Virus record (IMG/VR): IMGVR_UViG_3300029102_000023
Source: a virus
Taxonomy: Duplodnaviria; Heunggongvirae; Uroviricota; Caudoviricetes
DNA: 21,745 nt
Strand: one strand, 5' to 3'
The notes under the pieces are model-generated. The model searched no databases. It saw only the letters and a program-made list of their open reading frames with translations, and was not told the origin of the DNA. Shown piece after piece: positions 158 to 14,508 of this stretch. Position 1 is the first letter of the stretch. Each line of letters begins with the position of its first letter. The position numbers were made by a program, and so were the translations under genes.

Positions 158-212
158 GGGAGCACCTCAAAAACACCATCATACACTAAATCAGTAAGTT
201 GGCACCATTACC
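1..212 (-). mobile_element. IS1 insertion sequence, partial (insA-proximal end; remainder lies outside the window)
   Basis: Positions 1-212 match my recollection of the IS1 end including the terminal inverted repeat (ggcaccattacc ending at 212) and the 5' part of insA on the minus strand. Element is cut by the window edge. Confidence 0.8.
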
Positions 213-254
213 CTGAATTGTTGGTTAATACGCTTGAGGGTGAATGCGAATAAT

Positions 255-275
255 AAAAAAGGAGCCTGTAGCTCC
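255..275 (-). terminator. Rho-independent terminator candidate on the leftward transcript
   Basis: Inverted repeat GGAGC(261-265)/GCTCC(271-275) with 5-nt loop; A6 run at 255-260 on plus strand gives a T-run after the hairpin on the minus strand; lies just downstream of the 298-579 gene. Confidence 0.5.
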
Positions 276-297
276 CTGATGATTTTGCTTTTCATGT

Positions 298-579
298 TCA
301 CCGTTCCTTAAAGACGCCGTTTAACATGCCGATCGCCAGGCTTAAATGAGTCGGTGTGAATCCCATCAGCGTTACCGTTTCGCGGTGCTTCTTTAGTACG
401 CTACGGCAAATGTCATCGACGTTTTTATCCGGAAACTGCTGTCTGGCTTTTTTGATTTCAGAATTAGCCTGACGGGCAATGCTGCGAAGGGCGTTTTCTT
501 GCTGAGGTGTCACTGAACAAGCCCCATGTCGGCAAGCATAAGCACACAGAATATGAAGCCCGCTGCCAGAAAAATGCAT
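298..579 (-). CDS. Hypothetical protein, 93 aa (position of lambda b-region small ORFs, orf60a-like position)
   Basis: Intact ORF in the six-frame track, same strand and operon as exo/bet; family not recognised. Confidence 0.5.
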   Translation of the reverse strand: MHFSGSGLHILCAYACRHGACSVTPQQENALRSIARQANSEIKKARQQFPDKNVDDICRSVLKKHRETVTLMGFTPTHLSLAIGMLNGVFKER

Positions 580-589
580 TCAGTGGTTG

Positions 590-781
590 TCATACCTGGT
601 CTCTCTCATCTGCTTCTGCTTTCGCCACCATCATTTCCAGCTTTTGTGAAAGGGATGTGGCTAACGTATGAAATTCTTCGTCTGTTTCTACTGGTATTGG
701 CACAAACCTGACTCCAATTTGAGCAAGGCTATGTGCCATCTCAATACTCGTTCTTAACTCAACAGGAGATGCTTTGTGCAT
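590..781 (-). CDS. Small lambda-type hypothetical protein, 63 aa (orf61/orf63 family by position)
   Basis: [26 protein letters not shown]...; overlaps next ORF by 28 nt as in the lambda orf61/orf63 pair; name assignment from memory and uncertain. Confidence 0.5.
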   Translation of the reverse strand: MHKASPVELRTSIEMAHSLAQIGVRFVPIPVETDEEFHTLATSLSQKLEMMVAKAEADERDQV

Positions 782-942
782 ACCGCCTCCCGTTTATTAT
801 TTATCTTCTCAGCCAGCCGCTGTGCTTTCAGTGGATTTCTGATAACAGAAAGGCCGGGAAATACCCAGCCTCGCTTTGTAACGGAGTAGACGAAAGTGAT
901 CGCGCCTACCCGGATATTATCGTGAGGATGCGTCATCGCCAT
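754..942 (-). CDS. Small lambda-type hypothetical protein, 62 aa (orf63/orf61 family by position)
   Basis: ORF starts 10 nt inside the exo 3' end on the same strand, typical compact lambda arrangement. Confidence 0.5.
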
Positions 943-1613
943 TGCTCCCCAAATACAAAACTAATTTCAGCCAGTGCCTCGTCCATTTTTTCGATGAACT
1001 CCGGCACCATCTCGTCAAAACTCGCCATGTACTTTTCATCCCGCTCAACCACGACATAATGCAGTCCTTCACGCTTCATACGCGGGTCATAGTTGGCAAA
1101 GTACCAGGCATCTTTTCGCGTCACCCACATGCTGTACTGCACCTGGGCCATGTAAGCCGATTTTATGGCCTCGAAACCACCGAGCCGGAACTTCATGAAA
1201 TCCCGGGAGGTAAACGGGCATTTCAGCTCAAGGCCGTTGCCGTCACTGCATAAACCATCGGGAGAGCAGGCGGTGCGCATACTTTCGTCGCGATAGATGA
1301 TCGGGGATTCAGTAACATTCACGCCGGAAGTAAACTCAAACAGGGCTCTGGCGTCGTTCTCGTACTGTTTTCCCCAAGCCAGCGCCTTAGCGTTAACTTC
1401 CGGAGCCACACCGGTGCAAACCTCAGCAAGCAGGGTGTGGAAGTAGGACATTTTCATGTCAGGCCATTTCTTTCCGGAGCGGGGTTTTGCTATCACGTTG
1501 TGAACTTCTGAAGCGGTGATGACGCCGAGCCGTAATTTGTGCCATGCATCATCCCCCTGTTCGACAGCTCTCACGTCGATCCCGGTACGCTGCAGGATAA
1601 TGTCCGGTGTCAT
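933..1613 (-). CDS. exo: Lambda-type 5'-3' exonuclease (Red alpha)
   Basis: 226 aa protein [43 protein letters not shown]... matches lambda Exo over its length as I recall it; 4-nt overlap with bet. Confidence 0.97.
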
Positions 1614-2395
1614 GCTGCCACCTTCTGCTCAGTGGCTTTCTGTTTCAGGAATCCAAGAGCTTTCACTGCTTCGGCCTGTGTCAGTTCTGACGATGCGCGA
1701 ATGTCGCGGCGAAATATCTGGGAACAGAGCGGCAATAAGTCGTCATCCCATGTTTTATCCAGGGCGATCAGCAGAGTGTTAATCTCCTGCATGGTTTCAT
1801 CGTTAACCGGAGTGATGTCGCGTTCCGGCTGACGTTCTGCAGTGTATGCGGTATTTTCGACAATGCGCTCGGCTTCATCCTTGTCATAGATACCAGCAAA
1901 TCCGAAGGCGAGACGGGCACACTGAATCATGGCTTTATGCCGTAACATCCGTTTGGGATGCGACTGCCACGGCCCCGTGATTTCTCTGCCTTCGCGGGTT
2001 TTGAATGGTTCGCGGCGGCATTCATCCATCCACTCGGTAACGCAGATCGGATGATTGCGGTCTTTGCGGTAAATCCGGCATGTACATGATTCATTGTCCT
2101 GCTCAAAGTCCATACCATCAAACTGCTGGTTTTCATTGATGATGCGGGACCAGCCATCAACGCCCACCACCGGAACAATGCCGTTCTGCTTATCAGGGAA
2201 GGCGTAAATTTCTTTCGTCCACGGATTAAGGCCGTACTGGTTGGCGACGATCAACAATGCGATGAACTGCGCATCGCTGGCATCACCTTTAAATGCCGTC
2301 TGGCGAAGAGTGGTGATCAGTTCCTGTGGGTCGACAGAATCCATGCCGACACGTTCAGCCAGCTTCCCTGCCAGCGTTGCGAGTGCTGTACTCAT
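1610..2395 (-). CDS. bet: Lambda-type single-strand annealing protein (Red beta)
   Basis: 261 aa [59 protein letters not shown]... matches lambda Bet. Confidence 0.97.
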
Positions 2396-2400
2396 CCGTT

Positions 2401-2697
2401 TTATACCTCTGAATCAATATCAGCCTGATGGTGAGCAATGGTTTCAACTATGTACCGGATGTGTTCTGCCATGCGCTCCTGAAACTCAACATCGTCATCA
2501 AACGCACGGGTAATGGCTTTTTTGCTGGCCCCGTGGCGTTGTAAATGATCGATGCATAGCGATTCAAACAGGTGCTGGGGCAGGCCTTTTTCCATGTCGT
2601 CTGCCAGTTCTGCCTCTTTCTCTTCACGGGCGATCTGCTGGTAGTGACGCGCCCAGCTCTGAGCCTCAAGACGATCCTGAATGTAATAAGCGTTCAT
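2401..2697 (-). CDS. gam: RecBCD inhibitor Gam (98-aa GamS form)
   Basis: [60 protein letters not shown]... matches lambda GamS; AGGAG Shine-Dalgarno immediately upstream. Confidence 0.93.
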
Positions 2698-2772
2698 GGC
2701 TGAACTCCTGAAAATGGCTGTGAAAATATCGCCCGCGAAATGCCAGGCTGATTAGGAAAACAGGAAAGGGGG

Positions 2773-2916
2773 TTAGTGAATGCTTTTGCTTGATCTCAGT
2801 TTCAGTATTAATATCCATTTTTTATAAGCGTCGACGGCCTCACGAAACATCTTTTCATCGCCAATAAAAGTGGCGATAGTGAATTTAGTCTGGATAGCCA
2901 TAATTGTTTGATCCAT
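2773..2916 (-). CDS. kil: Host-killing protein Kil (FtsZ inhibitor), 47 aa
   Basis: Internal Met of the 2773-3042 ORF gives [47 protein letters not shown], lambda Kil as I recall it; overlaps cIII 3' end. Confidence 0.85.
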
Positions 2917-3049
2917 TTTTTGGGACTCCTGGCTGATTAAGTATGTCGATAAGGCGTTTCCATCCGTCACGTAATTTACGGGTGATTCGTTCAAGTAAAG
3001 ATTCGGAAGGGCAGCCAGCAACAGGCCACCCTGCAATGGCATATTGCAT
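2885..3049 (-). CDS. cIII: CIII protease inhibitor (FtsH/HflB inhibitor), 54 aa
   Basis: Hand translation of minus strand from ATG at 3049: [54 protein letters not shown], stop TAA at 2885-2887; below the ORF-track length threshold. Confidence 0.85.
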   Translation of the reverse strand: MQYAIAGWPVAGCPSESLLERITRKLRDGWKRLIDILNQPGVPKNGSNNYGYPD

Positions 3050-3121
3050 GGTGTGCTCCTTATTTATACATAACGAAAAACGCCTCGAGTGAAGCGTAAT
3101 TGGTATGCGGTAACGCCGCGC

Positions 3122-3490
3122 TCAGGCGGCCTTGATAGTCATATCATCTGAATCAAATATTCCTGATGTATCGATATCGGTAATTCTTATTCCTTCACTA
3201 CCATCCATTGGAGGCCATCCTTCCTGACCATTTCCATCATTCCAGTCGAACTCACACACAACACCATATGCATTTAAGTCGCTTGAAATTGCTATAAGCA
3301 GAGCATGTTGCGCCAGCATGATTAATACAGCATTTAATACAGAGCCGTGTTTATTGAGTCGGTATTCAGAGTCTGACCAGAAATTATTAATCTGGTGAAG
3401 TTTTTCCTCTGTCATTACGTCATGGTCAATTTCAATTTCTATTGATGCTTTCCAGTCGTAATCAATGATGTATTTTTTGATGTTTGACAT
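3122..3490 (-). CDS. ea10: Lambda Ea10-type protein, 122 aa
   Basis: MSNIKKYIIDYDWKASIEIEIDHDVMTEEKLHQINNFWSDSEYRLNKHG... matches lambda Ea10 from memory; correct position between cIII and ral. Confidence 0.85.
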   Translation of the reverse strand: MSNIKKYIIDYDWKASIEIEIDHDVMTEEKLHQINNFWSDSEYRLNKHGSVLNAVLIMLAQHALLIAISSDLNAYGVVCEFDWNDGNGQEGWPPMDGSEGIRITDIDTSGIFDSDDMTIKAA

Positions 3491-3509
3491 CTATTCATAT
3501 CCTCATAGA

Positions 3510-3536
3510 TAAAAAATCGCCCTCACACTGGAGGGC
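3510..3536 (-). terminator. Rho-independent terminator candidate (tL2-like) between ral and ea10
   Basis: Inverted repeat GCCCTC(3519-3524)/GAGGGC(3531-3536), 6-nt loop; A6 at 3511-3516 on plus strand gives the T-run after the hairpin on the minus strand. Confidence 0.5.
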
Positions 3537-3672
3537 AAAGAAGATTTCCAATAATCAGAACAAGTCGGCTCCTGTTTAGTTACGAGCGACATTGCTCCGT
3601 GTATTCACTCGTTGGAATGAATACACAGTGCAGTGTTTATTCTGTTATTTATGCCAAAAATAAAGGCCACTA

Positions 3673-3873
3673 TCAGGCAGCTTTGTTGTTCTGTTTACCA
3701 AGTTCTCTGGCAATCATTGCCGTCGTTCGTATTGCCCATTTATCGACATATTTCCCATCTTCCATTACAGGAAACATTTCTTCAGGCTTAACCATGCATT
3801 CCGATTGCAGCTTGCATCCATTGCATCGTTTGAATTGTCCACACCATTGATTTGTATCAATAGTCGTAGTCAT
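3673..3873 (-). CDS. ral: Restriction alleviation protein Ral, 66 aa
   Basis: MTTTIDTNQWCGQFKRCNGCKLQSECMVKPEEMFPVMEDGKYVDKWAIRTTAMIARELGKQNNKAA matches lambda Ral. Confidence 0.9.
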   Translation of the reverse strand: MTTTIDTNQWCGQFKRCNGCKLQSECMVKPEEMFPVMEDGKYVDKWAIRTTAMIARELGKQNNKAA

Positions 3874-3943
3874 ACGGATAGTCCTGGTATTGTTCCATCA
3901 CATCTTGAGGATGCTCTTCGAACTCTTCAAATTCTTCTTCCAT
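3857..3943 (-). CDS. Small acidic ORF (lambda orf28-like), 28 aa
   Basis: Hand translation: MEEEFEEFEEHPQDVMEQYQDYPYDYDY, stop TGA at 3857-3859 overlapping the ral start; not in ORF track (too short). Confidence 0.4.
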   Translation of the reverse strand: MEEEFEEFEEHPQDVMEQYQDYPYDYDY

Positions 3944-4086
3944 ATATCACCTTAAATAGTGGATTGCGGTAGTAAAGATTGTGCCTGTCTTTTAACCACA
4001 TCAGGCTCGGTGGTTCTCGTGTACCCCTACAACGAGAAATCGGATAAACTCTATTCACCCCTACAGAGAGCAAAAGAGAAACGCCG

Positions 4087-4668
4087 ATGAACAACTCATG
4101 GTGGCAGGAACTAATGCATTTTTTCCTGCAAGGAATGACACTTAAACAGTTGATTCATATGCTAATCATCCTGATCATATTGATTATTGTTATGCCGGTA
4201 AGCGTAAAAGAATGGATAAACCTGCATAGTCCAGAAATCCTTCCTCATTACTGGATGTATTACATCCTGTTGTTTTGCGTTAGCTATGTGCTTAACGGCG
4301 TTGTTAATTCCGCTTATCACGCTGTGACTGAAAGAATTGAGGTATTCGCTGCTCAGAAGCGCAAATCTAAAGAAGAAAAATATGTGCAAGATTTGTTTGA
4401 TTCGTTAACTCTTGGAGAAAGAGCGTATTTGGCATTCGCTGTAGCCGCTAATAACCAGCTACAAACGGAAAAGGGCGCTCATGAATCAATTTCATTGCTC
4501 AAAAAAGGACTCCTCGTTCGAAGGCCTCCTGCTGTTGGATATCCTGATACCGACCGTTTCGTTATCCCTGAAAGCTATAGACATGAGTGCTACATTAGGT
4601 TTGCCGGGAAGGCAGACAGCCTTATGGATGAACTTATCGCTCAGGATAAGCATGGCAAAAACAAGTAA
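4087..4668 (+). CDS. sieB: Superinfection exclusion protein B (membrane protein)
   Basis: 193 aa with hydrophobic N-terminal segments (LIHMLIILIILIIVMPV, YWMYYILLFCVSYVLNGVV); matches lambda SieB; antisense to the pL operon and convergent with N as in lambda. Confidence 0.9.
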   Translation: MNNSWWQELMHFFLQGMTLKQLIHMLIILIILIIVMPVSVKEWINLHSPEILPHYWMYYILLFCVSYVLNGVVNSAYHAVTERIEVFAAQKRKSKEEKYVQDLFDSLTLGERAYLAFAVAANNQLQTEKGAHESISLLKKGLLVRRPPAVGYPDTDRFVIPESYRHECYIRFAGKADSLMDELIAQDKHGKNK

Positions 4669-4684
4669 TTAGCAAATGAATTTA

Positions 4685-4957
4685 TCATCTCGCCGTCAGT
4701 TGTTTTGATTTCCGGTAGCCTGCCGCGTAAAGAGCTACGTTCGGAAGACAAGTTGAACCTTCATATTTTCTGGTCAACGTTGTCAGAGTTATCACTTCTG
4801 CTCTCATTGCTGGTTTGAGCTTGCATTGCAAGACCACTCGTGAAGGGGTTGGCCTGTGTAGCTTGTCGGAGCTGATCGCCTCCTGACTTTGCAGATTTGC
4901 GCGACGAGCTCTACGGCGAGAAGCTGCGGTGCCTTTAAATTCTGTTTTTCTGGACAT
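4685..4957 (-). CDS. N: N-type transcription antiterminator (non-lambda specificity), 90 aa
   Basis: Position directly downstream of the nutL/pL candidates; arginine-rich motif near the N-terminus (KGTAASRRRARRANLQ); strong GGGAGG Shine-Dalgarno 5 nt before ATG at 4957. The track ORF extends to 5029 but that start lacks an RBS. Confidence 0.6.
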   Translation of the reverse strand: MSRKTEFKGTAASRRRARRANLQSQEAISSDKLHRPTPSRVVLQCKLKPAMRAEVITLTTLTRKYEGSTCLPNVALYAAGYRKSKQLTAR

Positions 4958-5055
4958 GGATTCCTCCCGAATAAACTTTGGCGATGCAATCTCGAAGCTC
5001 CTCCTGAGACGGTTGCTTCGGCATTGCATCCCACAGCTTATGTGGTTGGGTGATC

Positions 5056-5100
5056 TGGCTTTTCAGCCACGTAGTCGAGAGTCGACGTTGTTTAAAGAGC
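5056..5100 (-). promoter_or_regulatory. nutL candidate (boxA GCTCTTTAA plus boxB hairpin TGGCTGAAAAGCCA) on the leftward transcript
   Basis: Minus-strand reading gives GCTCTTTAA...cgactacgt-GGCTGAAAAGCC, nearly parallel to the nutR candidate at 7737-7782 (GCTCTTTG...cctacgt-CGCTGAAAAGCG). Both lie immediately downstream of the divergent early promoters. Confidence 0.5.
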
Positions 5101-5148
5101 CTGCCAGTCTGTTCCATTTGGCTTCCAGCGTCCTGCTGACGGTTAAAT

Positions 5149-5190
5149 AGTACGATATGTACTTTACAAGATCAATACAATTTGTTGTAA
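5149..5190. promoter_or_regulatory. OL/pL region candidate: dyad symmetries AGTACGATATGTACT and TTACAA-N15-TTGTAA
   Basis: Imperfect palindromes upstream of nutL/N; the AGTAC...GTACT motif recurs in the cI-cro intergenic region (AAGTACATATTGTAT). Exact operator boundaries and the -35/-10 elements are not resolved. Confidence 0.35.
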
Positions 5191-5361
5191 GTTGGCGTGG
5201 TTTTTTATAACGCTTTGTATTTAATAGTGTTGTTTTTTAGCGTGGATGTATTGCCTCGGCGATGTAAGGAGAGATCAGAATTGCGTGGTTTAGTGGGTTG
5301 CATCTATTTATTTTTCAATAAATATAATTGGTTATGTGTTTTTAGGTGGGCGAACGTGAGG

Positions 5362-5388
5362 CAAAGAAAACCCGGCGCTGAGGCCGGG
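5362..5388 (-). terminator. Rho-independent terminator downstream of the cI-geneA-geneB operon
   Basis: Inverted repeat CCCGGC(5371-5376)/GCCGGG(5383-5388) with 6-nt loop; A-rich run 5364-5370 on plus strand gives T-run TTTTCTT after the hairpin on the minus strand; 6 nt beyond the gene B stop. Confidence 0.6.
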
Positions 5389-5393
5389 TTGTA

Positions 5394-6146
5394 TTATGCT
5401 GCAAGTCTCTTAACCCAAGTCTCTCTTTTGGAGAATGGTAGAACTTGGCTTGATTCATGGAAGAGTAAGGAGAGTTGTTGCATTTGATCACCAATTGCTT
5501 CGCTGTCTATAACAACAAATCTGTTGTTATACTCCTCACTTGAAGCTTTAAGATCAATTAGTTTCCCAAGCAATGAGTAAGCACTATTCCAGCTTCCTCC
5601 GTGTTTCACGCTTGATGTAAAAACGTATTTAGGTATGTCGGTTTTTATTGTTACAGGGACGGTAATTTGATGTCCACTCAAGCCATATACGTTTTCACGA
5701 AGAGAAAGTGCGTCTCTAAGCTCTGTGTGATATAGATAATCAATAACCATACTTTCAAACTTTTCAGCTTGAACTGGCTGATACCAGTCTAACGACAAAG
5801 TTGATGCGAGTATACCAGCTCTAATTATGTTCGATGTAATCGCACCGACATCCTTTTCTGTTGCCCAAGCAATGATTTCTCCTCGAGCATTGAGTTCTGC
5901 GCCTTCTTTAAGCAGTAATTGTCGTATCTCATCAAGTCGTTTTTTGGTAAGCGAGATCCCTCTTGCCTCCATATTCATTAAGGCATCGCATCTGTCACTA
6001 ACTAAATACCTACCATTGACTTCACGGATAAAGGCACCGACATGCTCTCCATCATCACAGTAAGTGAATGGACTGATAATTCTCAAGGTCTTGCCTATTG
6101 GATGGCATTCGAAACCTAGTTGTGAGATCACTGTTGAGCACATCAT
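5394..6146 (-). CDS. Unknown protein B, 250 aa (second gene of the two-gene cassette in the rexAB-equivalent position)
   Basis: Long intact ORF; ATG at 6146 overlaps the gene A stop (ATGA), indicating translational coupling; no obvious transmembrane segments; family not recognised. Confidence 0.7.
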   Translation of the reverse strand: MMCSTVISQLGFECHPIGKTLRIISPFTYCDDGEHVGAFIREVNGRYLVSDRCDALMNMEARGISLTKKRLDEIRQLLLKEGAELNARGEIIAWATEKDVGAITSNIIRAGILASTLSLDWYQPVQAEKFESMVIDYLYHTELRDALSLRENVYGLSGHQITVPVTIKTDIPKYVFTSSVKHGGSWNSAYSLLGKLIDLKASSEEYNNRFVVIDSEAIGDQMQQLSLLFHESSQVLPFSKRETWVKRLAA

Positions 6147-6700
6147 ATTCCAAACCCCATTTGCCCCGACTCATCTTCAAGCGGTAAAGGTATTCTCCCA
6201 GAGTAAGTTATGTTCAGATGTTTACAGAAGTAATTCCAATACCCTACCAGGTCATCTGGGTTTATGTCATCTTCGATTGGAAACGCTATTCTATCACTAT
6301 AGTATCCAGCTTCTTCATAGTATACATGGTAGTGAGCACCGTAAATGATATCTTGGTACTTCGGATGATCGACCTTGTAACTATTCGTGTGTTTGTCAAA
6401 GTGATAGGTATCTACCGCGAAAACCCTCTTGTTATGATAGAAAGCAATAATATTTATTTTAGGGTAAGAAATCGGGTCATCAGGTTCTGAATCCTGATCT
6501 GGTTTCCATTTCAGTTCAAACTTTAGCCCTTGTATAGGTATACAATCCTCATCCAAGGGGATGATATGGGCTTGTAGCCACATATCAGAGCGACTTGGTT
6601 TCTGTTTCCATTTAACGCCAGAAAAGTTAACTATTTTTTTACAATAAAGTACTTTATCAACTTCTACTTGGCTTGGCTGATAATCATCTATTTTTGCCAA
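6143..6700 (-). CDS. Unknown protein A, 185 aa (first gene of the cassette downstream of cI)
   Basis: Intact ORF 39 nt downstream of the cI stop on the same strand; acidic, Tyr/His-rich, no hydrophobic segments; the track start at 6700 is a TTG codon (next in-frame ATG is at codon 40), so the true start is uncertain. Confidence 0.65.
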   Translation of the reverse strand: MAKIDDYQPSQVEVDKVLYCKKIVNFSGVKWKQKPSRSDMWLQAHIIPLDEDCIPIQGLKFELKWKPDQDSEPDDPISYPKINIIAFYHNKRVFAVDTYHFDKHTNSYKVDHPKYQDIIYGAHYHVYYEEAGYYSDRIAFPIEDDINPDDLVGYWNYFCKHLNITYSGRIPLPLEDESGQMGFGI

Positions 6701-6739
6701 TGTTTACCGCCCTGTAAATTGTAGATAAAAGTGGTTTCA

Positions 6740-7399
6740 TCACCCAAACGTCTCTTCAGGCCATTGGCTGGCGATAACTTTCCCCACAACGGAACAACTC
6801 TCATTGCATGGGATCATTGGGTATTGTGGGTTTAGTGGCTGTAGAAACACCTGACCGCTATCCCTGATCAGTTTCTTGAAGGTAAATTCATCACCACCAA
6901 GTCTGGCTATGCAGAAATCGCCGGGCTCAACAGCTTGCTCAGGGTCAACCAGAATTAACATCCCGTCAGGAAAGCTGGGTTTGGAACCTGTTGGTGCGGT
7001 CATTGAGTTACCTTCAACCTCAAGCCAGAATGCAGAGTCACTGGCTTTTTTGGTTGTGCTTACCAATCTCTCCGCATCGCCTTTGGTAAAGGTTCTGAGT
7101 TCTGGAGAGAACATCCCAGCCTGAACATGAGAAAAAACAGGGTACTCATATTGTTTTTTAACTGGGGCCGATGAGTATTCGCCAACAGGTGAAAATGTCC
7201 CGTCGTGGTTGAATGATATGTTATCAATACCAAGGTATTTAAACACCACACCAATATCACTAAGAGATGGATGACGAGATCCGCGCAACCAGTGTCCAAT
7301 CCCACCCTGCGTCATACCTAGCTCTTCGGCTAACTTCTCTTGAGTTATGCCGAGCTCTTTCATTCTGGATCTAGCCAGTTCATACCATTTCATTTTCAT
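6740..7399 (-). CDS. cI: CI-type prophage repressor (N-terminal HTH, C-terminal LexA/S24-like autocleavage domain)
   Basis: HTH-like segment [23 protein letters not shown]; C-terminal domain with GNSM serine motif and downstream FKKL lysine; divergent from cro. Track ORF begins at a TTG (7441); ATG at 7399 or 7393 more likely, the latter with AAGGA 7 nt upstream. Confidence 0.9.
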
Positions 7400-7440
7400 G
7401 TCCTTATTATTACGCTCTGTACTGGAACCATCCATGCACA

Positions 7441-7510
7441 ATGTGTATTTTTACTTGTATTCGCAAAGTACATATTGTATTTTTTTATTCGTGTTTACTA
7501 TGGAGGGCAT
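7441..7510. promoter_or_regulatory. OR/pR/pRM region candidate between cI and cro
   Basis: Contains dyads TACTTgtattcgcAAAGTA (7452-7470) and AAGTACATATTGTAT (7466-7480), -35/-10-like hexamers (TTGTAT, TACTAT) and a GGAGGG Shine-Dalgarno before cro. Confidence 0.4.
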
Positions 7511-7726
7511 ATGAGCAACCTACGAAAATATCGAGAGTCACTGAATATCTCTCAAACAACACTTGCTAAGGCAGTTGGATGCACACAGGGAGCTATCGGA
7601 CATTGGGAATCTGGTCGTCGCTTCCCAGACCTTAAAACATGCCGTGCTCTTGTTGCGTGCCTAAACAAGTTAGGCGCAAAAGTCAGTCTTGATGACGTGT
7701 TCCCGCCGGAACACAAAGCCGCTTAA
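7511..7726 (+). CDS. cro: Cro-type HTH transcriptional regulator, 71 aa
   Basis: MSNLRKYRESLNISQTTLAKAVGCTQGAIGHWESGRRFPDLKTCRALVACLNKLGAKVSLDDVF; GGAGGG Shine-Dalgarno upstream; divergent from cI. The track's longer N-terminal extension overlaps the cI start and is rejected. Confidence 0.8.
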   Translation: MSNLRKYRESLNISQTTLAKAVGCTQGAIGHWESGRRFPDLKTCRALVACLNKLGAKVSLDDVFPPEHKAA

Positions 7727-7736
7727 TAAGCGGATC

Positions 7737-7782
7737 CGCTCTTTGTAACAACGGACATTCGTCCTACGTCGCTGAAAAGCGA
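7737..7782 (+). promoter_or_regulatory. nutR candidate (boxA CGCTCTTTG, boxB hairpin TCGCTGAAAAGCGA)
   Basis: Immediately after the cro stop; boxA-like CGCTCTTTG at 7737-7745 and stem-loop at 7769-7782; mirrors the nutL candidate. Confidence 0.55.
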
Positions 7783-7867
7783 GTTCCAAGATATCTGACC
7801 AACTAAGGCCATATGCGTTTCCACGCATACCTTTCAACTAACTATTCACTATTGGAAATCTTAAGAA

Positions 7868-8164
7868 ATGGAAAGAACAAGTTACAGCAAACTATCACAG
7901 CGTGACGTTGATCGCGCAGAAACAGATTTACTTATCAATCTGTCAGCTATTACCCAGCGCGGTCTGGCAAAGATGATTGGCTGTCATGAATCGAAGATAA
8001 GCAGAACGGACTGGAGATTTATTGCTTCGGTCTTGTGTGCTTTCGGAATGGCATCAGACATCAGTCCGATTAGCAGGGCTTTTAAGTATGCGCTTGATGG
8101 ACTCACCAATAAAAAACGCCCGGCGGCAACCGAGCGTTCTGAACAAATCCAGATGGAATTCTGA
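7868..8164 (+). CDS. cII: CII-type transcriptional activator, 98 aa (mosaic: divergent N-terminus, lambda-identical C-terminus)
   Basis: C-terminal 19 residues TNKKRPAATERSEQIQMEF equal the lambda CII C-terminus as I recall it; N-terminal HTH portion differs from lambda. Confidence 0.85.
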   Translation: MERTSYSKLSQRDVDRAETDLLINLSAITQRGLAKMIGCHESKISRTDWRFIASVLCAFGMASDISPISRAFKYALDGLTNKKRPAATERSEQIQMEF

Positions 8165-8196
8165 GGTCATTACTGGATCAATCCACAGGAGTCATT

Positions 8197-9096
8197 ATGA
8201 CAAATACAGCAAAAATACTCAACTTCTGCAGAGGTAACTTTGCCAAACAGGAGCGTAATGTGGCAGATCTCGATGATGGTTACGCCAGACTATCAAATAT
8301 GCTGCTTGAGGCTTATTCAGGCGCAGATCTGACCAAGCGACAGTTTAAAGTGCTGCTTGCCATTCTGCGTAAAACCTATGGATGGAATAAACCAATGGAC
8401 AGAATCACCGATTCTCAACTTAGCGAGATTACAAAGTTACCCGTCAAACGGTGCAATGAAGCCAAGTTAGAACTCGTCAGAATGAATATTATCAAGCAGC
8501 AAGGCGGCATGTTTGGACCAAATAAAAACATCTCAGAATGGTGTATCCCTCAAAACGAGGGAAAATCCCCTAAAACGAGGGATAAAACATCCCTCAAATT
8601 GGGGGATTGCTATCCCTCAAAACAGGGGGACACAAAAGACACTATTACAAAAGAAAAAAGAAAAGATTATTCGTCAGAGAATTCTGGCGAATCCTCTGAC
8701 CAGCCAGAAAACGACCTTTCTGTGGTGAAACCGGATGCTGCAATTCAGAGCGGCAGCAAGTGGGGGACAGCAGAAGACCTGACCGCCGCAGAATGGATGT
8801 TTGACATGGTGAAGACCATCGCGCCATCAGCCAGAAAACCGAATTTTGCAGGGTGGGCTAACGATATCCGCCTGATGCGTGAACGTGACGGACGTAACCA
8901 TCGCGACATGTGTGTACTGTTCCGCTGGGCATGCCAGGACAACTTCTGGTCCGGTAACGTGCTGAGCCCGGCCAAACTCCGCGACAAGTGGACCCAGCTC
9001 GAAATCAACCGTAACAAGCAACAGGCAGGTGTGACAGCCTGCAAACCAAAACTCGACCTGACAAACACTGACTGGATTTACGGGGTGGATTTATGA
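8197..9096 (+). CDS. O: Replication initiator protein O
   Basis: 299 aa MTNTAKILNFCRGNFAKQERNVADLDDGYARLSNMLLEAYSGADLTKRQFKVLLAILRK... matches lambda O; contains the origin iterons. Confidence 0.97.
   Translation: MTNTAKILNFCRGNFAKQERNVADLDDGYARLSNMLLEAYSGADLTKRQFKVLLAILRKTYGWNKPMDRITDSQLSEITKLPVKRCNEAKLELVRMNIIKQQGGMFGPNKNISEWCIPQNEGKSPKTRDKTSLKLGDCYPSKQGDTKDTITKEKRKDYSSENSGESSDQPENDLSVVKPDAAIQSGSKWGTAEDLTAAEWMFDMVKTIAPSARKPNFAGWANDIRLMRERDGRNHRDMCVLFRWACQDNFWSGNVLSPAKLRDKWTQLEINRNKQQAGVTACKPKLDLTNTDWIYGVDL
8545..8680 (+). repeat. ori-lambda-type replication origin: four ~18-bp iterons plus AT-rich segment inside O
   Basis: Direct repeats ATCCCTCAAAACGAGGGA (8545-8562), ATCCCCTAAAACGAGGGAT (8564-8583), ATCCCTCAAATTGGGGGATT (8589-8608), ATCCCTCAAAACAGGGGGAC (8612-8630), then A-rich stretch 8640-8680. 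Confidence 0.85.
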
Positions 9097-9794
9097 AAAA
9101 CATCGCCGCACAGATGGTTAATTTTGACCGTGAGCAGATGCGTCGGATCGCCAACAACATGCCGGAACAGTACGACGAAAAGCCGCAGGTACAGCAGGTA
9201 GCGCAGATCATCAACGGTGTGTTCAGCCAGTTACTGGCAACTTTCCCGGCGAGTCTGGCTAACCGTGACCAGAACGAACTGAACGAAATCCGCCGCCAGT
9301 GGGTTCTGGCTTTCCGGGAAAACGGGATCACCACAATGGAACAGGTTAACGCAGGAATGCGCGTAGCCCGTCGGCAGAATCGACCATTTCTGCCATCACC
9401 CGGGCAGTTTGTTGCATGGTGCCGGGAAGAAGCATCCGTTATCGCCGGACTGCCAAACGTCAGCGAGCTGGTTGATATGGTTTACGAGTATTGCCGGAAG
9501 CGAGGCCTGTATCCGGATGCAGAGTCTTATCCGTGGAAATCGAACGCGCACTACTGGCTGGTTACCAACCTGTACCAGAACATGCGGGCCAATGCGCTGA
9601 CTGACGCGGAATTACGACGCAAGGCTGCCGATGAACTGACCTGTATGACAGCGCGAATTAACCGTGGTGAGACGATACCTGAACCAGTAAAACAACTTCC
9701 TGTCATGGGCGGCAGACCTCTAAATCGTGTTCAGGCGCTGGCGAAGATCGCAGAAATTAAAGCTAAGTTAGGACTGAAAGGAGCAAGTGTATGA
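9093..9794 (+). CDS. P: Replication protein P (DnaB helicase loader)
   Basis: 233 aa MKNIAAQMVNFDREQMRRIANNMPEQYDEKPQVQQVAQIINGVF... matches lambda P; 4-nt overlap with O. Confidence 0.97.
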   Translation: MKNIAAQMVNFDREQMRRIANNMPEQYDEKPQVQQVAQIINGVFSQLLATFPASLANRDQNELNEIRRQWVLAFRENGITTMEQVNAGMRVARRQNRPFLPSPGQFVAWCREEASVIAGLPNVSELVDMVYEYCRKRGLYPDAESYPWKSNAHYWLVTNLYQNMRANALTDAELRRKAADELTCMTARINRGETIPEPVKQLPVMGGRPLNRVQALAKIAEIKAKLGLKGASV

Positions 9795-10081
9795 CGGGCA
9801 AAGAGGCAATTATTCATTACCTGGGGACGCATAATAGCTTCTGTGCGCCGGACGTTGCCGCGCTAACAGGCGCAACAGTAACCAGCATAAATCAGGCCGC
9901 GGCTAAAATGGCACGGGCAGGTCTTCTGGTTATCGAAGGTAAGGTCTGGCGAACGGTGTATTACCGGTTTGCTACCAAGGAAGAACGGGAAGGAAAGATG
10001 AGCACGAACCTGATTTTTAAGGAGTGTCGCCAGAGTGCCACGATGAAACGGATATTGGCGGTATATGGAGTTAAAAGATGA
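9791..10081 (+). CDS. ren: Ren protein (Rex exclusion resistance), 96 aa
   Basis: MTGKEAIIHYLGTHNSFCAPDVAALTGATVTSINQAAAKMARAGLLVIEGKVWRTVYYRF... matches lambda Ren; overlaps the P stop. Confidence 0.9.
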   Translation: MTGKEAIIHYLGTHNSFCAPDVAALTGATVTSINQAAAKMARAGLLVIEGKVWRTVYYRFATKEEREGKMSTNLIFKECRQSATMKRILAVYGVKR

Positions 10082-10106
10082 CCATCTACATCACTGAGCT
10101 AATAAC

Positions 10107-10138
10107 AGGCCTGCAGGTAATCGCAGGCCTTTTTATTT
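10107..10138 (+). terminator. Rho-independent terminator (tR2-like) between ren and ninB
   Basis: Perfect 8-bp stem AGGCCTGC(10107-10114)/GCAGGCCT(10123-10130), 8-nt loop, followed by TTTTATTT (10131-10138). Confidence 0.7.
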
Positions 10139-10154
10139 GGGGGAGAGGGAAGTC

Positions 10155-10595
10155 ATGAAAAAACTAACCTTTGAAATTCGATCTCCGGCACATCAGCAAA
10201 ACGCTATTCACGCAGTACAGCAAATCCTTCCAGACCCAACCAAACCAATCGTAGTAACCATTCAGGAACGCAACCGCAGCTTAGACCAAAACAGGAAGCT
10301 ATGGGCCTGCTTAGGTGACGTCTCTCGTCAGGTTGAATGGCATGGTCGCTGGCTGGATGCAGAAAGCTGGAAGTGTGTGTTTACCGCAGCATTAAAGCAG
10401 CAGGATGTTGTTCCTAACCTTGCCGGGAATGGCTTTGTGGTAATAGGCCAGTCAACCAGCAGGATGCGTGTAAGCGAATTTGCGGAGCTATTAGAGCTTA
10501 TACAGGCATTCGGTACAGAGCGTGGCGTTAAGTGGTCAGACGAAGCGCGACTGGCTCTCGAATGGAAAGCGCGATGGGGAGATCGGGCTGCATGA
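10155..10595 (+). CDS. ninB: NinB (Orf recombination mediator), 146 aa
   Basis: MKKLTFEIRSPAHQQNAIHAVQQILPDPTKPIVVTIQERNRSLDQNRKLWACLGDVSRQVEWHGRWLDAESWK... matches lambda NinB; GGGAGAGGG Shine-Dalgarno before ATG at 10155. Confidence 0.9.
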   Translation: MKKLTFEIRSPAHQQNAIHAVQQILPDPTKPIVVTIQERNRSLDQNRKLWACLGDVSRQVEWHGRWLDAESWKCVFTAALKQQDVVPNLAGNGFVVIGQSTSRMRVSEFAELLELIQAFGTERGVKWSDEARLALEWKARWGDRAA

Positions 10596-11119
10596 CTATC
10601 AAATCAAATACGCCAGCACACGACAAGGACTGCTGGCAAACGCCGCTTTGGCTTTTTGATGCACTGGATATTGAGTTTGGATTCTGGCTGGATTCGGCAG
10701 CGAGCGACAAAAATGCTCTGTGCGCTCACTGGCTAACTGAGGACGACGACGCGCTCAATTCTGAGTGGGTAAGCCACGGTGCAATCTGGAATAACCCACC
10801 GTACAGCAATATCAGGCCGTGGGTGGAAAAAGCCGCTGAGCAGTGTATACAACAGCGACAGACGGTAGTGATGCTTGTGCCAGAGGATATGTCTGTCGGA
10901 TGGTTCAGCAAGGCTCTGGAGAGTGTTGACGAAGTTCGTATTATCACTGATGGACGGATTAATTTTATCGAACCATCGACAGGGCTGGAGAAGAAGGGAA
11001 ACAGCAAAGGCTCCATGCTGCTGATTTGGCGACCGTTCATCAGTCCTCGACGGATGTTTACTACCGTATCCAAAGCGGCATTGATGGCGATCGGGCAGGG
11101 CGTCAGGAGGGCTGCATGA
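10592..11119 (+). CDS. Phage DNA N6-adenine methyltransferase (orphan, Dam-like family), ~175 aa
   Basis: Contains the N6-adenine MTase catalytic motif NPPY (IWNNPPYSN); ATG at 10592 overlaps the ninB stop (ATGA); occupies the ninC/ninD position; no adjacent restriction endonuclease gene. Confidence 0.8.
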
Positions 11120-11292
11120 GACGACAGCGACGAAGCATCACCGACATAATCTGCGAAAACTGCAAATACCTTCCAACGAAACGCTCCAGAAATAAACGCA
11201 AGCTAATCCCAAAAGAATCTGACGTAAAAACCTTCAATTACACAGCCCACCTGTGGGATATCCGGTGGCTAAGATATCGTGCGAGGAAATGA
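11116..11292 (+). CDS. ninE: NinE, 58 aa
   Basis: [58 protein letters not shown] resembles lambda NinE; ATG overlaps the methyltransferase stop (ATGA). Confidence 0.85.
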
Positions 11293-11636
11293 CAATGGAT
11301 TATTCACAGTTAAGTGATTTTGAAATTAACAGAATGGTAGGAGACATAATTTTTAAAGGCCTTTGGGCAAGTAAACCGGAAACATCAGGGAATAACACCA
11401 ACAAATGGTATTACGGAAATGCTGATACAACTTTTGAGCCATTAAATCATTTGCCTGACTACTGCAATGATCCGAGCGCTTCATGGCCGATTATTGAGAA
11501 ATACAGGATTTCTATCTTAGACCAGTTAACTGAATGGTGTGTGGATGCAAAAGGCGTAAGCCCAATATTTGATACCAGACCTCTCCGCGCCGCCATGATT
11601 GTCTTTCTCCTGATGCAGGAGGCCAATAATGCTTAG
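11289..11636 (+). CDS. Hypothetical nin-region protein, ~115 aa
   Basis: ORF (M)[71 protein letters not shown]...; ATG at 11289 overlaps the ninE stop (ATGA), alternative ATG at 11295; family not recognised. Confidence 0.55.
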
Positions 11637-11823
11637 CCCATCTCAATCCCTTCAATACCTGAAAGAAAGCATAGAGCGGGCTTCAATGTGCACAGAGTGG
11701 ATTCTATCTAGGTTTAGCGCATACAGAAGATTGCCGGTAAAGGGCATGCCAAGCAAGTCGATGCTGCATATGCAAAAGAATGCGCGCTGGAAGGTATGGC
11801 GAGAACACAGGTTATGTGGCTGA
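11629..11823 (+). CDS. Hypothetical small ORF, 64 aa (possibly part of a frameshifted ybcO-like gene)
   Basis: ATG at 11629 overlaps the end of the preceding ORF; a different frame (11718-11846) encodes ...[25 protein letters not shown] and ends in TGA overlapping the rusA GTG start, suggesting coding potential split across two frames. Confidence 0.3.
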
Positions 11824-11842
11824 AAGAGGGGGTTATTAAGGC

Positions 11843-12205
11843 GTGAATACCTACAGCATCACATTACCCTGGCCTCCGAGCAATAATCGCTATTACCGCC
11901 ATAATCGCGGGCGCACGCACGTCAGCGCAGAGGGGCAGGCATACCGCGATAACGTCGCCCGAATCATTAAAAACGCAATGCTGGATATCGGCCTGGCTAT
12001 GCCTGTGAAAATCCGCATTGAGTGCCACATGCCGGATCGCCGTCGCCGTGACCTGGATAATCTGCAAAAAGCCGCTTTTGACGCACTCACTAAAGCAGGT
12101 TTCTGGCTGGATGATGCTCAGGTCGTTGATTACCGCGTTGTGAAGATGCCTGTTACCAAAGGTGGGAGGCTGGAACTGACCATCACCGAAATGGGGAATG
12201 AATGA
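11843..12205 (+). CDS. rusA: Holliday junction resolvase RusA, 120 aa
   Basis: [100 protein letters not shown]... matches E. coli prophage RusA; start codon is GTG. Confidence 0.95.
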
Positions 12206-12342
12206 TGTTTGAGTTTAATATGGCAGAACTTCTTCGCCACCGCTGGGGGCGTCTGCGCTTATATCGTTTCCTCGGTTCTGTTTTGACCGATTACCGAATA
12301 CTGAAGAATTACGCCAAAACCCTGACAGGAACAGGAGTATGA
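12202..12342 (+). CDS. ylcG: YlcG-like small protein, 46 aa
   Basis: Hand translation: [46 protein letters not shown]; ATG overlaps the rusA stop (ATGA); matches the DLP12 rusA-ylcG-Q order; below ORF-track threshold. Confidence 0.75.
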
Positions 12343-12427
12343 AGTCAGAGATAACAATCAACTAATACTGTTTTGTTGATTTTTGCTTGTAATTGGCGTT
12401 CTGGTCTGATTTTTGTGGAGTAAGTTG

Positions 12428-12811
12428 ATGCGTGATATTCAGATGGTTCTTGAGCGTTGGGGTGCGTGGGCGGCTAATAATCATGAAGATGTGACCTGGT
12501 CGTCCATTGCCGCCGGTTTTAAGGGATTAATTCCTTCAAAAGTAAAATCTCGCCCGCAATGTTGTGACGATGACGCGATGATCATTTGCGGGTGCATGGC
12601 CCGTCTGAAAAAGAACAACAGCGATTTACACGATTTATTAGTAGATTATTATGTATGTGGTATGACATTCATGTCACTGGCAAGTAAGCATTGCTGCTCG
12701 GATGGTTATATCGGGAAAAGGTTACAGAAGGCTGAGGGCATAATTGAAGGGATGTTAATGGCATTAGATATCCGGTTAGATATGGATATCGTTGCTAATA
12801 ATTCTAATTGA
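12428..12811 (+). CDS. quuD: Late-gene antiterminator Q (DLP12 QuuD / phage 82-21 type), 127 aa
   Basis: [62 protein letters not shown]... with Cys-rich zinc-binding region; GGAG Shine-Dalgarno before ATG at 12428; the track start at 12413 is a TTG extension. Confidence 0.85.
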
Positions 12812-12834
12812 TATGCAATTGTTTACTAAAAGTT

Positions 12835-12861
12835 ATTAAAAATGGGGCGTGGAAACGCCCC
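12835..12861 (-). terminator. Rho-independent terminator candidate downstream of the porin gene
   Basis: Stem GGGGCG(12844-12849)/CGCCCC(12856-12861), 6-nt loop; on the minus strand the hairpin is followed by ATTTTTAAT. Confidence 0.5.
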
Positions 12862-12950
12862 CAAAATAAAGGGTAATATATAACAGAAGGTTTATATAGT
12901 AAGAAGCAAGGTAGTGCTTCTAAAGGAAGTGGCTTGAGGGCTCCACTTAT

Positions 12951-12988
12951 ATGTTGCGGAGGCAAAGCCTCCCGCAACATATCTTTTT
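12951..12988 (+). terminator. Plus-strand hairpin with T-run (tR'-like candidate) shortly downstream of Q
   Basis: Imperfect 13-bp stem ATGTTGCGGAGGC/GCCTCCCGCAACAT (12951-12980) followed by ATCTTTTTCG. Confidence 0.45.
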
Positions 12989-12999
12989 CGTAAGTCAGA

Positions 13000-14082
13000 T
13001 TAGAACTGATAAACCAGACCTACAGCGACGATGTCGTCGGTATCAATACCAGCTGTTTTGGTAAACTTACTATCGTCAATTAAGTTGATTTTGTAATCAA
13101 CAAAAGTGGACATGTTTTTATTAAAGTAGTAAGTAGCACCGACATCGACATACTTGACTAAGTCTCGGTCACCATGAACACCAAGGTCTTTACCTTTTGA
13201 CTGAAGGTAAGCAACAGATGGACGCAGACCGAAGTCAAACTGATATTGTGCTACTGCTTCAAAGTTTTGTGCTTTGTTTGCAATATGGTTATTACCAAAA
13301 ACGGTCATATTCTGAGTTTCAGAATATGTGGTAGCCAGATAGATATTGTTCGCATCATATTTCAGGCCTGCAGCCCATACTTCCGCATTTTTGCCGGAGG
13401 CATTGAATTTGCTCTTACCATAGGCGACCTGACCGTCAGTGCGATCTGATTTAGCATAGGTTGCACCCACGCCGAATCCTTCATACTCATAAGTAGTGGA
13501 GAAACCGAAACCATCACCATTGGCTTCAGTTACGTCAGTGCGGTCATTTTTACCCTGATACTGAGCAGCAAAGTTCAGGCCATCGACCAGACCAAAGAAG
13601 TCGTTGTTACGATAAGTTGCAACACCAGTAGTGCGACCAGTCATGAACACATCTGTTTGGGTCCAGGTATCACCACCGAATTCTGGCAGAACGTCAGTCC
13701 ACGCACCGATGTCGTATGCTACACCGTAGTTACGGCCGTAATCGATTGAGCCGTAATCACCAAATTTCAGGCCTGCAAATGCAAGACGGGTTTTGTCTTT
13801 GGAAGAACCTTGAGATTCAGCACGGTTGCCTTTGAATTCATATTCCCACTGACCGAAACCAGTCAGTTGATCGTTGATTTGGGTTTCACCTTTGAAGCCA
13901 AGACGGGCATAAGTAGTATCACCATCATCTGCATCATTAGAGGAGAAGTAGTGCTTGGCATTAACTTTCCCGTATAGATCCAGCTTGTTACTGTCTTTAT
14001 TATAAATTTCAGCTGCCTGAGCAGACATCGCCATCAGTACTGATGCAGCTACAGCAGAAATTGCCACTGTTAATTTTTTCAT
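13000..14082 (-). CDS. nmpC: Outer-membrane general porin (OmpC/OmpF/NmpC family), prophage-encoded, 360 aa precursor
   Basis: Signal peptide [23 protein letters not shown] then [23 protein letters not shown]... and C-terminal ...VAVGLVYQF (terminal Phe, beta-barrel signature); antisense between Q and the lysis genes as in DLP12. Track ORF start at 14142 is an upstream in-frame extension. Confidence 0.93.
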
Positions 14083-14450
14083 TGTACGCCCTTTTTTTGA
14101 ACTTTTATTAAAAAATGATGTCACTGCGCGATAAATATTCATCTAATCAATGTGATTATTTCAAGATGTAAGTTTTAGTTTCTCATTTAATTTGTGAAGT
14201 AGATCTCTATTTTTATCTGAACCTTTTCTATCTAATCCTATTCATGGCTCTTGTCTGAACAAAAATAAATCTATTAGCTAATTTATATTAATGGCACTTA
14301 TTTATAAGTGCTCTATAATTCTTTAGCTTAATTTAAACAAACTAAAAATAACATCGGAAATTATTAACTGGTTATTTGTTGAAGTTTTCTTATGCATTTG
14401 TGGTGGTGTTTTGAACACTCGGTGGCATTCTCACAAATATCATTTAGTAG

Positions 14451-14478: not shown

Positions 14479-14508
14479 GTTAAGAGTGGTTACTTCGTCA
14501 CACAGCTT

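Follow-up and report, generated by a model that had tools for sequence, protein, structure and literature searches.

Mosaic structure of the early control region in a common lambda-like prophage lineage of Escherichia coli

We analysed a stretch of viral DNA of 21,745 nucleotides (IMG/VR record IMGVR_UViG_3300029102_000023, referred to below, at its full length, as the window) and, in particular, its immunity region, in which a first-pass annotation made from the letters had seen one heterologous module at 4670-8105, set between lambda-like flanks and ending at a recombination junction inside cII. Our preferred explanation, to which we give a probability of about 0.88, is that early regulation in a natural lambdoid lineage is centred on this region, and that in comparison to lambda it is a mosaic of several pieces rather than a single substitution, having arisen by exchange at short conserved linkers. 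The pieces would be, from left to right, lambda-type exo-ral; a P22-type sieB; an N of the type found in phages 1717 and Nil2, with nutL and nutR sites of two hairpins each; a pair of cargo genes (DUF6978-like and DUF1828); a cI with a 1717/Nil2-type DNA-binding domain, together with its operators and cro, and with the C-terminal domain of lambda; a CII body of the phage 21/HK97 type with a lambda/434-type tail; and lambda-type oop-O-P-ren-ninB. This is a textbook lambdoid mosaic, and its sequence, immunity type and cII/oop boundary are already on record, as follows from its 99.7% collinearity with a prophage of E. coli ATCC 11775 and its 100% identity with one of E. coli Nissle 1917, both described below. 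The map places exchange below the level of the gene, in the linker of the cI domains and where the core of CII meets its tail, always at short conserved linkers; the cargo pair, which lies in the slot occupied by rexAB in lambda, is the sole element with unexplored biology.

The window was compared with lambda (J02459) by blastn and by a global alignment scored in bins of 100 base pairs (bp). Four matched blocks were obtained: 206-4066 (lambda 30618-34480, 97.6% identity), 5269-5390 (lambda 35708-35826, 90%), 6739-7150 (lambda 37226-37637, 93%) and 8102-10595 (lambda 38591-41084, 97.3%, without gaps), and blastn gave no alignment between them. In the binned alignment, identity was 0.98-1.00 through 3999 and about 0.4 from 4100, with peaks of 0.86 at 5300 and 0.92-0.95 at 6800-7000, and it jumped from 0.38 to 0.95 at 8100. 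Sharp steps had been expected near 4670 and 8100; the latter is there, while the drop on the left (from 0.99 to about 0.4) lies at about 4066. The early genes on both flanks are collinear with lambda, and each flank as a whole is above 95% identity to it. The heterologous block is thus 4067-8101, and it is interrupted by two lambda-like islands, namely a terminator patch (5269-5390) and the DNA of the cI C-terminal domain (6739-7150). At least eight segments with differing nearest relatives can be told apart, which contradicts a single swap with two junctions. The nearest relatives are P22 for sieB, phage 1717 for N, nutL and the left operator region (OL) as well as for the cI N-terminal domain, the right operator region (OR), cro and nutR, phages 21, HK97 and HK022 for the cII body, and lambda and 434 for oop-O-P. 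In favour of a mosaic exchanged at linkers are the sharp identity steps against lambda at 4066, 5269/5390, 6739/7150 and 8102, as well as the coincidence of the oop terminator, promoter and fold with a conserved island at the last of them. The right junction and the foreign character of the module proposed at first have therefore stood, and its left edge (about 600 bp off) and its one-block structure have not: the lambda-like island at 5269-5390 had been missed, and the two genes in the rexAB slot had gone unmentioned.

The simplest history that one could propose for such a region is a lambda genome which received one contiguous foreign immunity block, from N through most of cII (4670-8100), in a single swap. 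The 97% lambda-like flanks, the right junction at 8102 and the heterologous N, nut sites, operators and cro are all what this history would give. It is nevertheless contradicted on the left, where sieB is of the P22 type and lambda identity is gone already at 4066, and it does not account for the two lambda-like islands that break the block, nor for inner segments whose nearest relatives differ. Moreover, past ninB the backbone is not that of lambda (the methyltransferase, antiterminator Q and porin genes have no lambda match), and the whole block was present in no donor of the phage collection outside the same lineage. We thus regard a single swap as improbable, and prefer a mosaic of several pieces, whose junctions and modules are described in the following.

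The true left junction between lambda and non-lambda DNA lies at 4051-4066, in the intergenic stretch between ral and sieB. A three-way alignment revealed that this stretch (about 3935-4050) is nearly the same in lambda, P22 and the window; from about 4051, at ACTCTATTCACCCCTACAG, the window takes P22-type bases, and past 4066 lambda is wholly divergent. The annotated P22 promoter P_sieB (AF527608, 29690-29720) overlaps the start of the P22 match, and sieB begins about 20 bp downstream. The sieB gene itself (superinfection exclusion B; 4087-4668, plus strand; Pfam SieB, E-value 9e-22) is a P22-type allele, 88.5% identical to P22 sieB in nucleotides, and the protein shares 82% of its amino acids with P22 SieB (E-value 5e-111), versus 21% over 82 amino acids with lambda SieB (BLASTP E-value 0.023); sieB DNA gave no match to lambda. 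Because sieB is not lambda-like, the junction belongs at 4051-4066 and not between sieB and N at about 4670, where it had been placed at first. Positions 4669-4684 are a module boundary relative to other phages only, since homology to P22 sieB stops at 4646-4661 and homology to the N genes of 1717 and HK97 begins at 4685. The statement that exo, bet, gam, kil, cIII, ea10, ral and sieB are all near-identical to lambda is accordingly correct for the minus-strand early-left block from orf61 through orf63, orf60a, exo, bet, gam, kil, cIII and ea10 to ral (206-4066, 97.6%, three gaps), but not for sieB.

On the right, the junction falls within cII (7868-8164, plus strand; 98 amino acids; Pfam Phage_CII, E-value 7e-34), and here the first-pass annotation was accurate. 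Residues 79-98 (LTNKKRPAATERSEQIQMEF) are those of lambda CII 78-97, while residues 1-78 are heterologous; the whole protein is 87-89% identical to the CII proteins of phages 21 and 1717 (87% to 21) and 41% identical to that of lambda. Codons 1-78 are of the type shared by 21, HK97, HK022 and 1717, and codons 79-98 of the lambda/434 type. At a finer scale, codons 1-31 are 91% identical to 1717, codons 32-74 are 100% identical in nucleotides to 21, HK97 and HK022, and 8091-8101 is identical to phage 21; the remaining 8102-8164 is 98% identical to lambda, 100% to 434, 83% to phage 21 and 75% to 1717 and HK97. Informative sites locate the switch within CTCAC (8102-8106). Further micro-mosaicism is visible in HK97-type bases at 8180 and 8184, in an otherwise lambda-type surrounding.

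This junction is the left edge of a conserved linker island (8102-8204, minus strand), which comprises the last 21 codons of cII, the oop antisense RNA and the pO region to the start of O, and which is conserved in every lambdoid compared: its identity is 97% to lambda, 96% to 434, 88% to phage 21 and 72% to 1717, HK97 and HK022. On the minus strand we found an intrinsic terminator running from 8140 to 8113 and followed by a T-run, and a promoter-like site from 8222 to 8194; this unit we take to be the oop antisense RNA (about 8105-8187) with its promoter pO. RNA of the minus strand of the island folds into two hairpins (-28.4 kcal/mol, z -2.4). A scan of the whole window with Rfam gathering thresholds returned the cIII thermoregulator as its sole match, with no oop or nut family; the oop call and the nut calls given below are therefore based on promoter and terminator scans, folding and alignment. 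To the right of cII, the lambda-type replication block O, P, ren and ninB (8197-10595, plus strand) forms part of the gapless 97.3% match at 8102-10595, and its near-identity to lambda is confirmed.

The break inside cII is found in other genomes as well. Position 35521 of phage 21 corresponds to lambda 38591, which means that lambda homology resumes there at the same lambda coordinate as at position 8102 of the window. HK97, HK022 and 1717, which have another replication module, share only the 102-bp island with lambda in this place (lambda 38592-38693, 79%). The island of the window is 97% lambda-type as against 72% HK97-type, and it thus tracks the replication module, while the CII body follows an allele that is widely shared, that of 21 and HK97. 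When 5426 complete E. coli genomes were searched with 100 bp placed across the junction, 1028 of them matched over at least 80% of the probe length, at identities from about 90% to 100%. In an imm21 hybrid, an altered cII sequence to the left of oop has been described (Hayes et al., PMC3349717). The cII break is therefore the classical right boundary of the phage 21 type (imm21), and no new event.

N with its nut sites had likewise been expected to differ from lambda, and it does so. The N antiterminator (4685-4957, minus strand; 90 amino acids, or 114 if translation starts at an alternative upstream ATG at 5029; Pfam N_peptide, E-value 1.5e-32) is of the 1717/Nil2 type with an HK97-like C-terminus: it matches N of the Shiga toxin 2 (Stx2) phage 1717 in 89 of 90 residues, its last 21 amino acids equal those of HK97 N (43% overall), and its identity to lambda N is 25%. 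Its arginine-rich motif is GTAASRRRARRANL. The nutL site (5056-5100, minus strand) consists of boxA (5092-5100), a spacer hairpin (5074-5086) and boxB (UGGCU-GAAA-AGCCA, 5056-5069), and nutR (7737-7782, plus strand) of the same parts at 7737-7745, 7753-7764 and 7769-7782, its boxB being UCGCU-GAAA-AGCGA. Both follow one layout, distinct from that of lambda, in which boxA GCTCTTT is followed by AACAACG, the spacer hairpin, TACGT and boxB. The boxB stems of nutL and nutR differ by a compensatory change of G-C to C-G around the GAAA loop, and the spacer hairpins differ in sequence but keep their pairing. The motif [CG]GCTGAAAAGC[CG] of boxB is found in the window at nutL and nutR only, and a pattern search of the window found no lambda boxB sequence. 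Identity of nutR is 98% to 1717 and 87% to HK97. Each boxB has a 5-bp stem and a 4-nucleotide GAAA loop; the corresponding loop is GACAA in HK97 and GAAAA or GAAGA in lambda. An arginine-rich N is thus accompanied by boxA and a boxB hairpin downstream of both early promoters, pL and pR, and this N is predicted to act specifically on its own boxB.

As for the repressor, cI (6740-7435, minus strand) is a domain chimera. It carries the Pfam domains HTH_3 and Peptidase_S24, as well as the Ala-Gly cleavage site (QAGMF), GNSM and FKKL, as a LexA-like S24 repressor does, and it is identical to 1717 cI over 217 amino acids. The N-terminal helix-turn-helix domain (7151-7435) is of the 1717/Nil2 type, its first approximately 96 residues being identical to 1717 cI and heterologous to lambda. 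The C-terminal S24 domain (6739-7150) is one residue off lambda cI, and its DNA is 93% identical to lambda 37226-37637. The view that cI as such differs from lambda therefore applies to its DNA-binding half and fails for the other. The oligomerisation and RecA-cleavage domain is that of lambda, fused to a foreign DNA-binding domain; DNA of this same domain occurs in lambda, in HK97, which has lambda immunity, and in 1717, which has the immunity of the window. It is conceivable that repressors of heteroimmune phages could form mixed oligomers. The neighbouring cro (7511-7726, plus strand; 71 amino acids, helix-turn-helix, Pfam HTH_3) is again of the 1717/Nil2 type and as foreign as had been stated; its protein is 100% identical to the Cro of 1717 and 31% identical to that of lambda.

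The operators were sought by scans for dyad symmetry and by pattern, and one convincing 15-bp site was found in each region. The OL-like site, a near-palindrome at 5149-5163 in the OL/pL region, reads AGTACATATCGTACT on the minus strand; its sole close relative in the window, with one mismatch, is the OR-like site between cI and cro (7467-7481, AGTACATATTGTATT), and we estimate that about 0.007 such matches would be expected by chance. With up to three mismatches allowed, the pattern was found five times in the window against 1.3 expected, and there was no overall enrichment. Complete three-site operators were considered and are not claimed, as the scans gave a single convincing site per region. 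Lambda operators are absent: the best match in the OL and OR regions has at least 6 mismatches in 17 positions. Together with the lack of a lambda boxB, this bears out the claim that both nut sites and operators differ from those of lambda. The window lineage is thus predicted to be heteroimmune toward lambda.

In phage 1717, an otherwise different Stx2 phage, N with nutL and OL (4685-5391, 93%) recurs together with cI, OR, cro, nutR and cII (6742-8204, 96.8%). This joint recurrence beside another replication module and other cargo supports co-inheritance of N with nut and of the cI N-terminal domain with its operators and cro. The description of the region as a heteroimmune module in a lambda-like context, in which N is tied to nut and the DNA-binding domain of the repressor to the operator regions and cro, therefore holds. 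What had been called a textbook modular swap is right as to this linkage; it has to be modified as to the number of pieces and the chimeric cI.

How could such a mosaic arise? Each junction borders a short sequence that lambdoids of otherwise unrelated make-up have in common, and four such linkers can be named: the ral-sieB intergenic stretch, the terminator patch behind the cI operon, the DNA for the C-terminal domain of cI and the 102-bp island of cII tail, oop and pO. The segments, their breakpoints and their distribution are observations. From them we infer that co-infecting phages and resident prophages recombine homologously, by host RecA or by a phage system of the Red/Erf type, and that exchange begins in these linkers and proceeds as far as homology reaches, so that whole functional units would be exchanged. 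N and boxB, like the cI N-terminal domain, operators and cro, would remain linked because they are situated between the same linkers. The junction inside cII may be viable because it coincides with the boundary between the folded core and the C-terminal tail of CII, because the tail DNA also encodes oop, and because both CII types use TTGC-N6-TTGY sites. The C-terminal tail of CII is the tag for degradation by FtsH. The CII site for pRE in the window (TTGCTGTAACTTGT, 7877-7890, minus strand) is TTGC-N6-TTGT and fits the TTGC-N6-TTGY pattern annotated for phage 21; that such a site is kept helps to explain how either CII type could work with any neighbouring module.

Several points weigh against this explanation. 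The exchange and its breakpoints are deduced from alignments. On its left side, the switch at 8102-8106 has only 5 bp of identity, which means that the original event could have been illegitimate and have spread later by homologous exchange in the flanks. With one strong operator-like site each in OL and OR, the operator sets are partial, and both heteroimmunity and the N/nut specificity are predictions from sequence. Finally, dual coding by the cII tail and oop is by itself enough to predict that the island is conserved. This last point leads to an account without recombination, in which the window and lambda diverged from a common ancestor and the lambda-like islands and flanks were held back by stronger purifying selection. 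The dual-coding island, being 72-79% identical even between phages with unrelated neighbours, fits it. On the other hand, selection would have to raise identity from about 40% to 97% inside less than 10 bp, and to keep it at 97% over kilobases of flank, third codon positions included. The account is contradicted by the heterologous segments, which are 88-100% identical each to a different phage, and by the island itself, which is 97% lambda-type as opposed to 72% HK97-type and follows the replication module. We give divergence without recombination practically no credence, and retain exchange at conserved linkers as the explanation of the mosaic.

The region is, at the same time, an ordinary and already sequenced early control region of a common lambda-like prophage of E. 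coli. Its closest match, at 99.9% identity over the window, is Escherichia phage PhiR57_1, in whose annotation the gene order is exo, bet, gam, kil, cIII, ea10, ral, sieB, N, two hypothetical genes, cI, cro, cII, O, P, ren, ninB. The immunity region (4670-8105) is 100% identical in phages ev017 and ev207, and also in PhiR57_1, which is of the same lineage. An icd-integrated prophage of E. coli ATCC 11775 is collinear with 206-21745 of the window at 99.7%, the lambda-like left arm included, and defective prophage 3 of E. coli Nissle 1917 is identical to it (100.000%) over 4063-11238. In the Nissle copy, an IS3-family insertion sequence (ISEc52, locus positions 1931-3171) cuts the prophage to the left of sieB, with exo through ral gone, and it sits within a few bases of the lambda/P22 junction of the window (4063). 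We considered whether the start of identity at 4063 might itself be a recombination joint and rejected this, as the insertion sequence lies there and collinearity with the intact prophage of ATCC 11775 continues across the point.

These relatives bear on yet another possibility, namely that the mosaic is of recent or artificial origin, be it an imm hybrid made in the laboratory, a chimeric assembly, or the product of a recent recombination of a lambda-like phage with a defective prophage already present in the host that it infected. It could be argued that the closest phage records, PhiR57_1 and PhiR63_2, were grown on ECOR13, and that the defective Nissle prophage is 100% identical from 4063 rightward, near the lambda/P22 junction; the left end of that identity, however, is the insertion just described and no recombination joint. 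A chromosomal prophage at icd in the E. coli type strain is collinear at 99.7% over 21.5 kb, the cargo cassette described below is found in 241 complete genomes, and the immunity region is identical in ev017 and ev207, which were isolated independently. A recent or artificial origin is thus very unlikely, and a natural, widespread lineage remains our reading.

The slot that holds rexAB in lambda is occupied in the window by other genes. Its left flank is the lambda-like patch downstream of the cI operon (5269-5390, minus strand; 90% to lambda 35708-35826, just past rexB), which carries the hairpin of an intrinsic terminator (5369-5390). Cargo gene B (5394-6146, minus strand; 250 amino acids) has a DUF1828 N-terminal domain and a PD-(D/E)xK-like C-terminal domain; cargo gene A (6143-6700, minus strand; 185 amino acids), which overlaps B by 4 bp, encodes an all-beta protein with an invariant G-x-H-x-H-x-Y-x-E. 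The edges of the slot agree within about 5 bp between lambda (35826|37226, rexAB), 1717 (9718|11044), HK97 (26903|28243), 2G7b (35482|36959) and the window (5390|6739). Each slot holds about 1.3-1.5 kb of cargo, and the cargoes of lambda, 1717, HK97 and the window are mutually without DNA homology; that of 2G7b, compared with the cargo of the window only, differs too. The interval between cI and N, with rexAB or bstA in it, is already known as a hotspot of mosaicism (Owen et al. 2021, PMC8585504).

Gene B matches the PADLOC model PDC-M24B over nearly its full length (E-value 5e-10), whereas gene A matches PDC-M24A only weakly (E-value 5e-4 over 60 residues), as it does DUF6978. Scans of the two proteins against Pfam and PADLOC returned neither a Rex family nor BstA, and our literature search on DUF1828, DUF6978 and PDC-M24 found no published functional test of the candidate. 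Of 5426 complete E. coli genomes, 241 (about 4%, Nissle 1917 among them) carry the pair at 99% identity or more, whereas it is found in only eight phage records. Homologues occur across Enterobacterales and in Aeromonas, and otherwise unrelated prophages of Aeromonas caviae and Pectobacterium carotovorum have this pair behind an S24 repressor divergent from a cro-like gene. B appears to combine a sensor or chaperone-like domain of the YbjN/DUF1828 type with a nuclease-like effector domain of the PD-(D/E)xK type, and A may be its small all-beta partner. From their position, their conservation beside repressors and their folds, a defence role may be proposed, and A and B are then a candidate prophage anti-phage system expressed from the repressor operon, a suggestion to which we give somewhat less than even odds. 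A candidate defence pair thus sits in the rexAB slot of a prophage that is very common in E. coli and that the probiotic Nissle 1917 carries as well.

The right part of the region is also relevant to a reported phenotype of Nissle 1917. The 'phage repressor pr' of this strain (EcN_1294), expressed from pUC19, is reported to have lowered plating of lambda and Stx phages more than 200-fold (Bury et al. 2018). We mapped the priming portions of the pr primers of that study exactly to 7822-7840, 8065-8082, 8105-8123 and 8171-8189 of the window. These positions imply that the cloned fragment (7822-8191) is the cII gene with most of oop, and not a cI-type repressor. The pr phenotype may thus reflect overexpression of CII or OOP rather than repressor immunity, and the identification of pr as cII by primer mapping suggests another mechanism for the reported protection of K-12 from lambda and Stx phages.

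A few features outside of the immunity region may be mentioned. The cIII thermoregulator RNA of lambda (Rfam RF01804, 88.5 bits) lies at 3004-3062 on the minus strand. The lambda homology that begins in cII stops at 10595. In the part beyond ninB (10592-17736), a DNA adenine methyltransferase gene replaces ninC; downstream of it there follow NinX, RusA, YlcG and a Q antiterminator of 127 amino acids, which RefSeq lists as QuuD-type, a porin gene of the OmpD/OmpC type that is read from the other strand (13000-14142), and holin and lysozyme genes without a lambda match, then bor/iss, and a match to the right (cos) end of lambda that finishes at about 17736. The window opens with an end of IS1 (1-212), whose identity to IS1 copies is 93-98% and which meets the prophage at about 205, a position occupied by a TraR/DksA-like gene in the closest relatives, namely PhiR57_1, ATCC 11775, phage 21 and 1717. 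An IS1 end joined to prophage DNA indicates a prophage of a bacterial chromosome interrupted by an insertion sequence; the IS1-prophage joint itself had no match among the complete E. coli genomes of the collection.

Compared with known systems, the N-nut module of the window resembles those of the H-19B/HK97 class, in which boxA is followed by a spacer hairpin and then boxB; two hairpins have been reported for the nutR of H-19B (PMC3526286). HK97 differs from the window in its GACAA boxB loop (a 4-nucleotide GAAA loop in the window) and in its N, which is 43% identical overall. The cargo pair resembles lambda rexAB and bstA of Salmonella phage BTP1 in lying directly downstream of cI, in the same orientation and upstream of the operon terminator. 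The flanks of the slot are shared with lambda at 90-93%, but with RexAB only the genomic position is held in common: A and B, DUF6978-like and DUF1828 with a nuclease-like domain (candidate PDC-M24), matched none of RexA, RexB and BstA in the Pfam and PADLOC scans.

Phage 21 and lambda imm21 agree with the window in the return of lambda homology at 38591, in the 21-type CII body and in the lambda-type O, P, ren and ninB that follow. Phage 21 differs, however, in cI (32% amino acid identity), Cro (21%) and N (33%), its operators and nutR are unrelated, and it has no sieB at the corresponding position and no cargo genes behind cI. Moreover, its cII/oop overlap has a 3-base insertion of its own and several substitutions (KKKRPVCKTE), which the window does not carry, being lambda/434-type there (8102-8164; 98-100% as against 83% to phage 21). 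The Stx phages 1717, Nil2, 2851, YYZ-2008 and Stx2-II share with the window N, nutL and OL (4685-5391, 93%) as well as cI, OR, cro, nutR and the cII body (6742-8101, about 97%); they differ from it in their HK97/P22-type replication genes, HK97-type cII tail and oop, other cargo and lack of a P22-type sieB. The Nissle prophage differs from the window in its left end, since an insertion sequence truncates it to the left of sieB, while the window begins instead with an IS1 end at about 205. The lineage to which the window belongs includes phages ev017, ev207 and PhiR57_1, the icd prophage of ATCC 11775 and prophage 3 of Nissle 1917.

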